NCBI GenBank assembly: GCA_019894975.1
Contig: JAGXNO010000011.1
Location: forward strand, 16,480-80,479
Direction: 5' to 3'
Length of the DNA stretch: 64,000 nt
From: Promethearchaeota archaeon
GTDB lineage: Archaea > Asgardarchaeota > Lokiarchaeia > Sigyniarchaeales > SOKP01
Shown here: positions 10,650 to 28,814 of the stretch, one piece after another
How the letters are laid out: each line of letters opens with the position of its first letter
Numbering within the stretch: the stretch's first letter is position 1
Position numbers and translations under genes: made by a program
The notes under the pieces: generated by a model
What the model saw: only the letters and a program-made list of their open reading frames with translations
Told to the model about the DNA's origin: nothing
Databases searched by the model: none

Positions 10650-11258
10650 ATGATGAATGACGTTAAAGACGGTAAAATATCTCTTGATGATATAGAATTA
10701 CCCGAAAAGATTCCAGCAAAATTCATTAATTCAAGAGTGATAATCTTTAATCCCCTTTTTGCTTCTTATCTTTATGTAAAGGGCATCAATGGTCAACGTT
10801 TTTTTGGATCACCATTAGGCATAAATAAGCCACGATTAGAATATTTTTCAAAACCCTCAGAATTATCACTAATAGAAGCGTACTATTTATTGGAAAAAGA
10901 ATATATATCGATTTTTGACGTCATAGAAAACAAAGAATTAGAAGCTAAAGACTTTTATGAAATAGCATTAAAAATCCATCATAAATTTGAAGAAAAATAT
11001 AAAATCTATAAAGACTTACGAAATAAGAATTACGTACCTAGACCTGGATTAAAATTTGGGGCAGATTTTGTCGTATATCGTCTCGGACCGGGTCTTGAAC
11101 ATTCACTTTTCATGGTGCATGTTTTACCCCATGATTCTGAAATTACCGCAGTAGATATGGTACGAGCGGGAAGATTAGCAACATCAGTAAGAAAGAAATT
11201 TGTAATCGCCAATCCTATGACAAATTCTTATTATTTCTTTGAATGGTTTAAACCCTAA
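10650..11258 (+). CDS. endA: tRNA-splicing endonuclease, catalytic subunit
   Basis: LSLIEAYYL, YKDLR, GLKFGADFVVY (Tyr), GPGLEHS (His) and RLATSVRKK (Lys): the catalytic triad is intact. Confidence 0.95.
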   Translation: MMNDVKDGKISLDDIELPEKIPAKFINSRVIIFNPLFASYLYVKGINGQRFFGSPLGINKPRLEYFSKPSELSLIEAYYLLEKEYISIFDVIENKELEAKDFYEIALKIHHKFEEKYKIYKDLRNKNYVPRPGLKFGADFVVYRLGPGLEHSLFMVHVLPHDSEITAVDMVRAGRLATSVRKKFVIANPMTNSYYFFEWFKP

Positions 11259-15905: not shown

Positions 15906-16553
15906 TTATATATTTTTTTGCTGATTTATAATCAAATCTTTCGTTTTTTTTAATCGTATATAACCTTCTCTCTCAATTTCTTCTAAAACATCCTTTATCT
16001 TTTTAATATCCTCTTTTAACCTTGGTATTATGATATTTTTAAGCCCGTTTATCCTACGGTTAACCTTTTTGAAATTAAGAGAATATTTTAATAATAAATC
16101 CTCTATTTCAGAAAATTTAATTAAAGCGTCAAAAAATTGATTTAAGACAATTATTAAATCATCAAGATAATGACTAGTGTTTTCAAACGTATAAGCGGGA
16201 AGAACTTCCTCTCGTGATAATTTATAGTCTACATGAGATACAAGGATTCCTGCTTTTTTTTTATATCGAATGGCTATAACCGGTTTATGTTGTATTTTAC
16301 TCAATCTACTAATTAAATTCAGACCGTACTTACCCATTTCCTCATAAGTGTGATTCAATTTTAAAAGTGATTGTTTAAACAGAGAAATAAATTCAATTCT
16401 TAGTTTATTATATTCTTTCCATATCAGCTTAATTGTGAACATTAATTGTTCTCGTTTAAATTCTAAATATGTTTCTCCTTTGGTAGCAAAGTTAAGCCGT
16501 TTAGCTAATACCATTAAATTTGATTTTGTTGGTTTAAGTTCTCTAAAGCTGAT
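15906..16553 (-). CDS. atpD: A/V-type ATPase subunit D (probable ATC start)
   Basis: NRRINGLKNIIIPRL and LEEIERE..RLKK motifs. The in-frame upstream SFRELKPTKSNL matches the conserved N-terminal PT(R/K)xxL of subunit D. Confidence 0.88.
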   Translation of the reverse strand: MSFRELKPTKSNLMVLAKRLNFATKGETYLEFKREQLMFTIKLIWKEYNKLRIEFISLFKQSLLKLNHTYEEMGKYGLNLISRLSKIQHKPVIAIRYKKKAGILVSHVDYKLSREEVLPAYTFENTSHYLDDLIIVLNQFFDALIKFSEIEDLLLKYSLNFKKVNRRINGLKNIIIPRLKEDIKKIKDVLEEIEREGYIRLKKTKDLIINQQKNI

Positions 16554-25416: not shown

Positions 25417-26226
25417 TTGAAATCTTTTATAGGAATTGACATAGGGTCGCTTGCAAGCAAGGTTGTGTTATTAAGTGAGGGAAAAATGATCGATTATCGA
25501 GTAGAAAGGTCTACATTCGATTTTAAAAGAGTTGGTAATAATCTTTTTAATGACATCATAGAAAAAAATAATTTAAGTAAAGATGATGTATTCATTATGT
25601 CTACGGGTTATGGACGTAATACTATTGATATAGCTGATGATAGAATCACAGAAATTACAGCCCATGCTCGTGGGGTACAATACTTTTTCCCAGAAGCTCA
25701 TAGCGTCATAGATATTGGAGGTCAAGATTCCAAAGCAATACTTATCTCTAAAAAAACAGGAAGTGTTATGGACTTCCAGATGAATGATAACGATAATTTT
25801 AATTAAAAATTATTGTCAATATGTGCTGCCGGTACCGGTAGGTTTCTGGAAGTTATGGCTCATGCACTTGAAGTTCCAATTGAAGAAATTGGAGGACTTG
25901 CATTAAATTCAAATAAACCATCAGCAATAAGTTCCACATGTACGGTATTTGCTGAGAGCGAGGTAATATCATTATTTGCTAGAGGTACCTCAAAACATGA
26001 TATAGCTGCGGGGATCCATAAATCCATTGCGAGGAGAGTTGCAGGTATGGCTAAACGGATAGGAGTAGCTCCTTTATTGGTTTTTTGTGGGGGTGTAGCT
26101 AAAAATATAGCAGTTAAAAAGTTTTTAGAAGAAGAATTAGGATATGAAATTGTAATCCCAGATCATCCTCAACTTACTGGAGCAATAGGCGCTGCTCTAA
26201 TTGCTCAAGAACATAATGGTAACTAA
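25417..26226 (+). CDS. 2-hydroxyacyl-CoA dehydratase activator ATPase (HgdC/BcrD-type ASKHA, [4Fe-4S]); predicted spliced CDS join(25417..25790,25821..26226), 259 aa
   Basis: GIDIGS, STGYGR and DIGGQDSK lie in the first half; [21 protein letters not shown] and GGVAKN lie in the second. Both halves are in the same frame. Removing 25791-25820 yields MNDKCAAGTG. Confidence 0.88.
25791..25820 (+). other. Putative bulge-helix-bulge (BHB) mRNA intron, 30 nt
   Basis: 4-bp helix UGAU (25785-88)/GUCA (25815-18), bulges AA^C (25789-91) and AU^A (25819-21), a 9-bp intron stem (25792-800/25806-14) and an in-frame UAA. Cleavage after the second bulge nucleotide on each strand restores the Lys codon AAA. 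Confidence 0.8.
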
Positions 26227-26318: not shown

Positions 26319-27449
26319 ATGGAAAATTTAGAGTTTTTATCAGAATATTACACATTACTAAAAGAAAAAAAAGAAGAAGGTAAAAAAGTCATAGCCTTCA
26401 TATCTCATGATAATATTCCGGAGGAATTAATTGACGCTGCGGGGTTTATTCCTTTAAGATTGATCTTTGCGGGAAATGATGAATTAATGGATGCTAGTCA
26501 TGATTTTTTGCCTCCATCAACTTGCTCATTTGCTCAATCATGTATTGGAGCTTTTTCTATAAAACCCGACAACTTAAAGGTTTTAGATTTAATCGATTAT
26601 ATTATAATTTCAAATCATTGTGTTTCAGACATCTGTGCATCAGAAATAATTTCAAAATATTATGATATTCCTCAATTGAAATTTTATGTCTCATACACTA
26701 AAACGGAAAATAGTTTAAAATATTTTAAATTAGAATTAAATGATTTAAGGGAAAAGCTTGAAGAACTTAAAGGTTCTGTAATAGAAACTCAGGATTTAAT
26801 GAATAGTATTGTAAAATATAATAATTTTAAGAAAAAAATATCAGATTTAAGTAAATTAGCGATCCCAGGGGCTCAAAAATTAAAACATTTTCAAAGAGCG
26901 CTTTTAATTGGTCCTTATTATCTTCCAGAATTAGAGAGTTTTCTCCAAACTCAAGAAGAGACTCAAATTAATGAAAAGTCAAAGCCTATTTTTTTAACTG
27001 GTTGCTCTATTTTCATCAATGATTACTTGAATGATTTAATTGAGGGTGGTGGGGGAAATATAGTGTTCTTTGATACTTGGGTTGGATTTAATTATTACTC
27101 ACAAATTTTTGATGGGGACTCAATAAATTCCTCGATTGATCCGATTGATCTATTAGTAGAGCGTTTTAAAAAGAATATATTTGGTGATCACTCTGTACCA
27201 AATTTCTTAGAAACTAAAATCTCGCAAATAGAAGAGTTTTATAAGAATTATAAAAACACTTCAGGGAAAAAAGTAGGAGTGATTAATCATATCATAAAAT
27301 TTTGTGACCACATGTCAATTATGTCCTCACATCTGAAGAAACAACTACAAGAGAAAGGAATTCAGGTGTTAAATTTAGAAAGAGATTATTCAAGGGCTAA
27401 CAAGGGCCAATTAAGTACTAGGATTGAAGCATTCCTGGAGATGATGTAA
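26319..27449 (+). CDS. 2-hydroxyacyl-CoA dehydratase (HgdA/B, FldB/C family) subunit
   Basis: IPEELIDAAG.IP, TCSF, NHC, KFCD and GQLSTRIEAFLEM motifs. Confidence 0.85.
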   Translation: MENLEFLSEYYTLLKEKKEEGKKVIAFISHDNIPEELIDAAGFIPLRLIFAGNDELMDASHDFLPPSTCSFAQSCIGAFSIKPDNLKVLDLIDYIIISNHCVSDICASEIISKYYDIPQLKFYVSYTKTENSLKYFKLELNDLREKLEELKGSVIETQDLMNSIVKYNNFKKKISDLSKLAIPGAQKLKHFQRALLIGPYYLPELESFLQTQEETQINEKSKPIFLTGCSIFINDYLNDLIEGGGGNIVFFDTWVGFNYYSQIFDGDSINSSIDPIDLLVERFKKNIFGDHSVPNFLETKISQIEEFYKNYKNTSGKKVGVINHIIKFCDHMSIMSSHLKKQLQEKGIQVLNLERDYSRANKGQLSTRIEAFLEMM

Positions 27450-27452
27450 TAA

Positions 27453-28814
27453 ATGAGTTTAGTCGCAGATGAATTAATTAGGTTTTCTTCGGTGTTAAGG
27501 ATCGCTTATAACTTTTTAACAGGTAGGGATTATCTAAAGAGAAAGAAGTTTAGAGAGAAAAAGAAATTGATTTCTATCGGTTTGCCTTTTTCAGATCTTG
27601 TGTATGGGTTTCCAGATTTAATTCCAGTCTTTCCCATAAGAATGCACGAATTTAAAATTCATAAATATCTCACCTATTTAGGGTCAGCATCAAATATTTT
27701 TGGGTGGAACAGTGTTACAAACTTCTTAGGTTTTGTAAAAGACCTTGGTATTAAAGATGTAAGTCAAACAGTTGATAATATTATCGAAGATGTAATTGAT
27801 ACTATAAATTACAAATATAATGAAATGTATGATTTTGGTGAGGAATGTGGGATTCCGACTGATTTTTGTTATGGTGTTAAATCACTCTATGGGATGAATG
27901 TATCAAAAGGGAAGAATTGTGATGCGAACTTGAATTATACGATTCGATGTAGTGCTTGGAATAAGTATTTAGAATCAATAAAAGCAATAGGGAATCCATC
28001 CAAACAAATATGGATCGAAATACCTCCCAGAAATATAGGAAATTCATTAGAACTTTTTATGGATAATATTGTTAAAGGAATAGAAGAATTAGAAGAAATT
28101 AGTAGTTATAATTATAGCAATAATGGATTAAGAGATCATTTTCGAACTGCTAATCAAATTCACCAATCTTATAAAAAAATCATATATGAAATAGGCACTG
28201 CTGATTTTTATCCGTGTAATCCTGCTACTTTTAGTGAAATTCTTGCATTATTAAACATTAGTTTTCATGATTATAATTCAAATGCTACTCGATATAGAGA
28301 CAACATCACTTCTTTATTAGATGAAATGAAAGGGAGAGTAAATAAAGGAATTGGAATGGATGTATCCAAAAGACCTAAAATTCTTATAACGCCTATGTTT
28401 GGTGGTTGGGAACCAAAAACTCATGATATTATATATGAATTAGGAGGGAGGGCGTTATATGGAGATTGGGACCTTTTAGGGTTTTTAGATGATATACCTA
28501 TTTCAACTAGATCTGATCCAATTGAAGCCTATGCTCAATTCTTAATGGATGTAACTTCAGATGGTATAGGGTGCGATAACGATATATTAACAGATTCTTA
28601 TGTCAGGTTAGCTAAAAATCTAAAGGCTGATGGGCTAGTTTTTGTTCAAGTGTTTGGTTGTCATTCTGTTTCAAATTGTTATACGATGCTAAAAGAAAAA
28701 CTCCGTAGAGAGTTAGAAATCCCGAGTATCGCATTGAATTTTAATAAAATGGGGGAAAATATCGAACAAATTAAAACTCGTTTAGGAGCCTTCATGGAAA
28801 TGTTTTCCTTGTGA
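27453..28814 (+). CDS. 2-hydroxyacyl-CoA dehydratase family subunit
   Basis: DFCY, RCS, GCHS and EQIKTRLGAFMEM motifs. Confidence 0.8.
   Translation: MSLVADELIRFSSVLRIAYNFLTGRDYLKRKKFREKKKLISIGLPFSDLVYGFPDLIPVFPIRMHEFKIHKYLTYLGSASNIFGWNSVTNFLGFVKDLGIKDVSQTVDNIIEDVIDTINYKYNEMYDFGEECGIPTDFCYGVKSLYGMNVSKGKNCDANLNYTIRCSAWNKYLESIKAIGNPSKQIWIEIPPRNIGNSLELFMDNIVKGIEELEEISSYNYSNNGLRDHFRTANQIHQSYKKIIYEIGTADFYPCNPATFSEILALLNISFHDYNSNATRYRDNITSLLDEMKGRVNKGIGMDVSKRPKILITPMFGGWEPKTHDIIYELGGRALYGDWDLLGFLDDIPISTRSDPIEAYAQFLMDVTSDGIGCDNDILTDSYVRLAKNLKADGLVFVQVFGCHSVSNCYTMLKEKLRRELEIPSIALNFNKMGENIEQIKTRLGAFMEMFSL

Follow-up and report, generated by a model that had tools for sequence, protein, structure and literature searches.

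The activase gene and its interruption

The 64,000-nucleotide stretch of Promethearchaeota archaeon DNA considered here (the window, positions 16,480 to 80,479 of contig JAGXNO010000011.1, assembly GCA_019894975.1) carries on its forward strand a gene that, as judged from homology, is that of an HgdC/HadI-type [4Fe-4S] ATPase, the activator (hereafter, activase) of a 2-hydroxyacyl-CoA-dehydratase-like enzyme. The gene is broken by a 30-nt insert (25791-25820) that contains an in-frame TAA at 25804-25806. The insert is very probably spliced out of the mRNA because it has the bulge-helix-bulge (BHB) shape and is found at the same codon in eleven species in which the gene is otherwise intact.

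In the list of open reading frames (ORFs), the upstream ORF (25417-25806) encodes 129 amino acids from a TTG start to the C-terminal ...MNDNDNFN, with the TAA at 25804-25806 as its stop codon, and the downstream frame picks up at 25822 and ends with the stop at 26224-26226. The two halves correspond to positions 1-135 and 137-271 of the Pfam BcrAD_BadFG (PF01869) profile, and the single profile position absent between them is a Lys. It is inside the codon of this Lys, one residue ahead of the cluster-ligand Cys, that the insert lies. Exon 2 aligns from Cys125 of the 2-hydroxyisocaproyl-CoA dehydratase activator (4EHT, E 1e-39) and from Cys127 of HgdC (1HUX, E 1e-37), the aligned Cys of these solved activators being a ligand of the bridging [4Fe-4S] cluster. 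The initial annotation of the locus, made from the DNA letters, had placed the insert in the Lys codon that precedes the [4Fe-4S] Cys, as borne out by the Pfam gap of one position and by the two structural alignments; its coordinates and sequences were all correct on rechecking.

Excision of 25791-25820 yields AAU GAU AA|A UGU, that is N-D-K-C within ...MNDKCAAGTG..., and a joined product of 259 residues. That the cut rule of the tRNA splicing endonuclease (EndA) gives NDKCA and a protein of exactly this size had been predicted, and the length is indeed that of the uninterrupted orthologues. Exon 1 (25417-25790, Pfam 1-135) comprises the TTG start, at the position where the orthologues also start, 124 codons in all and the AA of the Lys codon. 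Exon 2 (25821-26226, Pfam 137-271) contributes the last base of that codon and 134 further codons, of which the first is Cys, followed by the stop at 26224-26226.

The bulge-helix-bulge fold

In canonical pre-tRNAs with a BHB, each bulge is cleaved behind its second base, with the intron at 37/38. Every element of the BHB fold initially described for the activase insert (UGAU/GUCA helix, AAC and AUA bulges, 9-bp stem, 5-nt loop) was found to be present. The 5' strand of the central helix (H) is the exon sequence UGAU of the codons AAU GAU (25785-25788), which pairs, with one G-U, with the intron sequence GUCA (25815-25818). Two 3-nt bulges, AAC (25789-25791) and AUA (25819-25821), are on opposite strands, each 3' of its own strand of the 4-bp helix. 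The intron interior (h', 25792-25814) is a hairpin, flush with the bulge and H, with a 9-bp stem (25792-25800/25806-25814; GAUAAUUUU/AAAAUUAUU) and a 5-nt loop (25801-25805). The cuts are predicted at 25790|25791 and 25820|25821, the third base of the second bulge completing the Lys codon, and the predicted spliced junction reads ...GATGAATGATAA|ATGTGCTGCC..., equally written ...CAGATGAATGATAA|ATGTGCTGCCGG...; uninterrupted homologues join at 25790|25821.

At a distance of 4 and 23 nt from the BHB, the two exons form a 10-bp helix with one another (5' arm, GACUUCCAGA, 25771-25780; 3' arm, UCUGGAAGUU, 25845-25854), which closes a 96-nt region in the minimum-free-energy (MFE) fold (z = -5.2 versus shuffles). 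The rate at which comparable motifs occur by chance was obtained by scanning this genome for 4-bp helices, allowing no more than one G-U, that have five or more inner base pairs flush with them: 38,600 of approximately 2.2e8 (position, length) pairs obey this rule, corresponding to approximately 1.8e-4 per fixed site and length.

Same-site inserts in related species

Support for the BHB element was sought where the initial annotation had proposed to look for it, namely in orthologues with an insert at the same site and altered stems, and was found in 11 of the 154 species genomes of the order, belonging to two genera. The relatives are deposited as Promethearchaeota/Promethearchaeia metagenome-assembled genomes (MAGs), i.e. 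Loki-type Asgard archaea, in agreement with the Asgard host assumed at the outset. In pattern searches, the insert was detected in 7/54 genomes of the same genus, 4/42 of the second genus and 0/19 across three further families of this order. When 30 orthologues from the genus were compared with no pattern imposed, the halves were separated by 3 nt in 27, whereas three had 30, 32 or 35 extra bases exactly there, and a second such check of 80 further loci revealed no other kinds of insert.

The inserts of the 11 species measure 27, 30, 30, 30, 32, 32, 32, 32, 33, 35 and 35 nt. Six are frameshifting and the remaining five contain an in-frame stop; for each of the 11, cutting by the BHB rule recovers both D-K-C and the reading frame, the restored Lys codon being AAA or AAG (its last base is A here and G in two other species). 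All begin after ATGAATGAYAA and finish with GTCAA(A/T). Helix H is fully paired (4/4) in every case, with UGAU or UGAC as the exon strand, an invariant GUCA as the intron strand and A-rich bulges.

The hairpins, of 6-10 bp, differ in sequence: three to five pair types are found at each of the stem positions 1-5 and two at position 6, as counted on the analyst's own parses of the 11 introns with no correction for phylogeny. Examples are the stem strands UUCAAUUAG/CUAAUUGAA in genome G012, ACUUAAGAA/UUCUUAAGU in G004 and UCUGCUUAAA/UUUGAGCAGA in G145, and double (compensatory) changes are found on comparing the stems of G012 and G069. Each of the 11 hairpins is more stable than its own shuffles (z = -2 to -9.5), and in four species unconstrained MFE folding gives the complete BHB, which is within 0.2-3.9 kcal/mol of the MFE fold in the other seven. 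The use of AAC as the Asn codon would disrupt the first pair of H; it is found in 21/78 intronless copies and 0/11 intron-bearing ones, a comparison that is uncorrected for kinship and is weak evidence.

The exon-exon helix had been proposed to clamp the junction. It is present in the MFE fold of the Promethearchaeota archaeon copy, as described, and is paired 10/10 in 5/11 intron-bearing species versus 3/80 loci lacking the intron, and at one pair G-C is replaced by A-U; a link of this helix to the intron is suggestive only. With perfect pairing in only five of the 11 species it is common without being obligatory, and the clamp was dropped as a general requirement.

As a separate observation, G012 has two activase copies, one with a 32-nt intron (C56:55459-55513) and one uninterrupted and 85% identical to the query (C40:1424-1816).

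Selection on the exons and reality of the insert in DNA

No stops are found inside either exon in any of the 11 intron-bearing copies. The closest intronless orthologue, which lies on ordinary DNA contigs and has the same neighbours, differs at 71/780 exon bases, with 59 of the 71 differences at third codon positions and 6 amino acid changes. Between G004 and G062, whose introns are clearly homologous, 92/114 nucleotide differences are at third positions, with 18 amino acid changes. From this third-position bias in two species with homologous introns it follows that the two exons were both under selection as one joined frame with the intron present. Taken together, the substitution patterns indicate that both exons are under strong purifying selection, and the relaxation that the initial annotation had named as a sign of a pseudogene is not seen.

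The insert is a feature of the DNA. In a strain that is 97% identical, recovered from a marine-sediment run, the insert is unchanged and 9/10 of the listed differences are at third positions; contigs of a permafrost run and of a soil run from other studies contain it with 0 differences. For other homologues, the same runs contain contigs in which 25790 is joined directly and exactly to 25821, and the intron-bearing MAGs derive from many assemblies. An assembly artefact, raised initially as a possible objection, is ruled out by these independent contigs and MAGs. A mobile repeat was also ruled out: the intron is present in a single copy, with no second copy of the 27-nt insert core in the 3.9 Mb genome at up to 3 mismatches.

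Directly downstream of the activase gene and on the same strand, two intact genes (26319-28814) encode proteins of the HGD-D family (2-hydroxyacyl-CoA dehydratase component D; Pfam PF06050, E 1e-52 and 3.5e-34), which are presumably the partners of the activase. Upstream, genes for an enoyl-CoA hydratase and a VIT1-like protein are found, and the gene neighbourhood is also conserved around the intronless orthologue. Elsewhere, the genome holds four more distant BcrAD-family matches, the nearest paralogue being 49% identical.

Splicing machinery and RNA data

The gene for the catalytic (alpha) subunit of EndA (10650-11258, forward strand, 202 residues, PF01974) lies within the window, 14.5 kb upstream of the intron. 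The catalytic Tyr/His/Lys motifs are present, and among solved structures the best match is to the Aeropyrum pernix heterotetramer, in its catalytic subunit (3P1Z_B, E 1e-34). A second PF01974 paralogue of 200 residues, without the Tyr and the His, is encoded on contig C55 (L003:1210-1812). From its sequence, this paralogue is assigned as a beta-like subunit, so that the genome is taken to encode an EndA of (alpha-beta)2 architecture. Asgard EndA has been described as an (alpha-beta)2-type enzyme with a loop tied to broad substrate specificity (Kaneta et al., PMC5829648), and two EndA paralogues have been reported in 44/60 Asgard genomes, where tRNA genes are heavily interrupted (bioRxiv 10.64898/2026.10.13.758758). 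A full-length RtcB gene is present on C90. A second, partial RtcB match (C48:320-1171, L050), which runs to the end of a contig of 1.2 kb, could represent a paralogue or contaminating DNA, the genome contamination being rated 8.6%.

With ARAGORN, only 16 tRNA genes, six of which have introns, were detected, at a rated genome completeness of 95%; non-canonical or multiple introns probably mask many others, as described for Asgard archaea in the preprint cited above.

With respect to the spliced form, a degenerate junction covering four of the intron-bearing species was matched once, by an unrelated intronless orthologue (75-78% identical). The spliced product was not found among the 120 best longer homologues, the best of which is 97% identical and encoded on ordinary DNA contigs.

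Interpretation and alternatives

The reading initially put forward, an endonuclease-spliced BHB intron in mRNA, is supported by the same-site inserts, the exact empty site in uninterrupted homologues, the selection on the exons and the presence of both EndA and RtcB, and from these lines of evidence we infer cleavage and ligation of the activase mRNA. We consider it highly likely that the 30 nt at 25791-25820 are a true spliced BHB intron of the activase pre-mRNA. In the proposed mechanism, the exon UGAU of the transcript would pair with the intron GUCA, the intron interior would form the 9-bp hairpin, and the two 3-nt bulges would be exposed on opposite strands. The heterotetrameric (alpha-beta)2 EndA would then cleave both bulges behind their second base, with RtcB ligating the exons to generate the AAA (Lys) codon and an open frame of 259 codons. 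Unspliced RNA would yield only the 129-residue fragment lacking the cluster-binding half of the protein. That splicing gates the expression of the activase is, at present, speculative.

Several observations weigh against this interpretation. The helix adjoining the BHB on the outside consists of one A-U pair followed by an A.G mismatch and two wobbles, and because the helix directly outside is so weak the motif fits the relaxed class of BHB rather than the strict hBHBh' form. In the unconstrained MFE fold of this copy, the hairpin is lengthened by 2 bp and H is not formed, the BHB conformer being less stable by 1.8 kcal/mol, and in G120 seven unpaired bases separate the first bulge from the stem. 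The exact spliced junction was not matched in the metagenome contigs. The only RNA contig (218 nt, 25481-25698, identical to the DNA) ends short of the junction, and for that reason is uninformative on splicing. In a stricter genome-wide scan with shifted-cut controls, 210 frame-restoring BHB motifs were counted versus 212-254 in the controls, that is no excess genome-wide. Genome-wide tests of this kind are uninformative because joinable neighbouring genes swamp the few true cases; thus, genome-wide statistics give the claim no support, and it is the per-locus homology checks alone that do. Finally, the closest relatives are intronless and the distribution on the gene tree is patchy, so that repeated exact loss, repeated gain or transfer is needed.

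The insert might alternatively be a dead one, with the gene a pseudogene in each of the lineages that carry it. The unspliced frame does end at the TAA at 25804-25806, most congeners, including the closest, have an uninterrupted gene, and the genome has four more distant BcrAD-family matches. However, eleven species would then have been broken at the identical codon with no other defect, the BHB shape would have been kept while the stem sequence changed, and the third-position bias (59/71, and 92/114 between two species with a homologous insert) would be left without a cause; moreover, the adjoining dehydratase genes are intact and the nearest paralogue is only 49% identical. This explanation is, therefore, very unlikely. 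The selective constraint also bears on a mechanism in which EndA cuts the mRNA at the BHB and the ends stay unjoined, the element acting as a switch for decay or down-regulation and not as an intron. Yeast TSEN does cleave some mRNAs with no ligation (PMC10485636), and no ligation has been seen for the activase mRNA. Yet the downstream exon is under the same purifying selection as the upstream one, in a frame that only joining gives, the cut rule restores the invariant Lys codon in 11/11 species, and RtcB is present, which makes cutting alone highly improbable.

Two further explanations dispense with RNA processing altogether. In translational bypass, of the type of T4 gene 60 or of the yeast mitochondrial byp elements, the ribosome would hop over the insert. 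The size of 27-35 nt, the hairpin and the nearby stop recall bypass elements, and in several relatives AAA is found on both sides of the insert. In this genome, however, no matching in-frame take-off and landing codons are found: the codon before the gap is AAC, and the matching Asn codon AAU (25818-25820) is out of frame with UGU GCU GCC, so that a hop would yield neither the Lys nor the correct frame. The invariant GUCA that pairs with the exon UGAU has no role in bypass, and the element obeys the EndA rule in all 11 species; hopping is, on these grounds, extremely unlikely. Similarly hard to credit is a truly split gene, the halves of which would be made as separate polypeptides and assemble, despite the TTG at 25813, within the insert, that opens a 137-residue frame. 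Six of the inserts shift the frame and create no start context, and G012, the single relative inspected by eye, has just one ATG close to the 3' junction, which is not in frame. The break separates the Lys from the cluster-ligand Cys, midway through a single Pfam domain, and the conservation of the BHB would be left unexplained.

History of the intron

In a tree of 33 orthologues, the intron-bearing sequences are dispersed through both main clades, and the well-supported branches force at least 3 changes. Besides the homologous introns of G004 and G062, those of G012, G069 and the Promethearchaeota archaeon of this work (G000) have a common stem core, AUAAUU/AAUUAU, and the introns of G064 and G120, which belong to different genera, have 15 nt in common (UUUAGCAUAGUCAAA). 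Because some introns are clearly related, including those of G064 and G120 across genera, the comparison favours an intron of old origin that has been lost exactly many times; gain or transfer is a possible alternative.

Relation to known systems

In the literature searched, the coding transcripts spliced by the tRNA endonuclease are those of cbf5 in some Crenarchaeota and one Haloferax mRNA, and in a 2023 review the number of archaeal mRNAs processed by the endonuclease is put at two, with more expected (PMC10485636). The BHB intron of the pre-mRNA of cbf5, encoding a pseudouridine synthase, is found in Desulfurococcales and Sulfolobales (PMC2738675; summarised in PMC10485636). Like that intron, the activase intron is short, lies in coding sequence, has a relaxed BHB and is found in a host with a heteromeric (alpha-beta)2 EndA; it is likewise at a fixed position of the gene, present or absent by lineage, and its removal is needed for a full-length protein. 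By analogy, the mechanism would be the same, with differences in the host lineage, the class of gene, the patchiness and the distant clamp helix. The host is a Loki-type Asgard archaeon and not a crenarchaeote, and the gene encodes a metabolic iron-sulfur ATPase and not an RNA-modification enzyme. The activase intron is also far patchier (11/154 species, with the closest relatives lacking it), and the distant 10-bp exon-exon helix often stands in for the weak adjacent outer helix. Whereas splicing of cbf5 has been demonstrated experimentally, we infer that of the activase mRNA.

The 4-bp helix, the two 3-nt bulges and the cuts after the second base are those of archaeal pre-tRNA BHB introns, including the non-canonical ones cut by (alpha-beta)2 EndA (PMC5829648). 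The intron also resembles Asgard tRNA introns in its size range, the AU-rich hairpin interior, the enzymes and the apparent repeated gain or loss (bioRxiv 10.64898/2026.10.13.758758); mRNAs are not mentioned in that preprint. The activase substrate differs from these in being an mRNA with no tRNA body, so that the reading frame, and not the cloverleaf, sets the boundaries. In Haloferax volcanii, the HVO_1309 mRNA is processed in an EndA-dependent manner, with spliced reads reported (PMC7714728; discussed in PMC10485636). There, too, a BHB motif in an mRNA is a substrate of the tRNA splicing endonuclease, but H. volcanii is a euryarchaeon with a homodimeric EndA, and the activase intron is inside a conserved codon of the coding sequence.

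If our interpretation is correct, mRNA splicing by EndA and RtcB would be no crenarchaeal curiosity, as it would take place in 11 Asgard species and possibly on further split genes of the same genome. In Asgard MAGs, gene callers would systematically split genes of this kind or label them wrongly, leading to distorted metabolic reconstructions. The lineage nearest to eukaryotes would tolerate introns within coding sequence, a point of relevance to how splicing became separated from translation, and the 11 variant substrates would provide a natural series for defining the recognition properties of Asgard EndA outside tRNA.

Other split genes

The genome-wide BHB scan suggested in the initial annotation led to two further split genes. 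In a scan combining structure and ORFs, the activase locus ranked first among the hairpin-type candidates, and two single-domain genes were found to be split by 31-nt BHB-like inserts. One is an AMP-binding (acyl-CoA-synthetase-type) gene (insert at C101:40055-40085, L041:1056-1086; helix UGGG/CUCA, 7-bp hairpin) that is split into frames of 267 and 352 residues (Pfam 25-194 | 207-384). Among the 54 congeners, all of the approximately 45 full-length orthologues have one open frame of approximately 620 residues, so that the insert is private to this species. Separately, the AMP-binding orthologue of G017 (C6:13001-14083) has one in-frame TAG, for which an insert, a sequencing error or a pseudogene may be considered. 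The other split gene is that of a UXS-like NAD epimerase/dehydratase (insert at C164:24143-24173, L042:744-774; helix ACGU/GCGU, 7-bp hairpin), which is interrupted inside ...GHV-N-PVGPRSCYDESKR (Pfam GDP_Man_Dehyd 1-143 | 146-332). Real splits could be told apart only by their Pfam coordinates: among the 16 top candidates, defined by an inner stem of at least 7 bp, this check confirmed 3 splits, and approximately 5 others appeared by eye to be adjacent genes. With lax settings, the scan returned 6830 candidates versus 6360 expected.

A wider and tentative proposal, which we regard as possible though rather doubtful, is that BHB mini-introns of approximately 30 nt form a population that has been repeatedly gained or exchanged and lost in coding genes of Loki-type Asgard archaea, with the tRNA-splicing machinery routinely splicing mRNAs. 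The patchy tree, the species-private AMP-binding insert and the other split genes are compatible with such a population and are no proof of it. If it were so, production of the ATP-consuming activator of a radical enzyme would depend on splicing, the intron being located just before an Fe-S ligand.

A further 29-nt hairpin-type BHB candidate (C84:40624-40652, L043), for which the upstream frame chosen by the scan is unlike helicase sequence, is located just upstream of the ...RGLDVxxxxxVIxxDLP...HRIGRTARAG part of a DEAD-box helicase frame.

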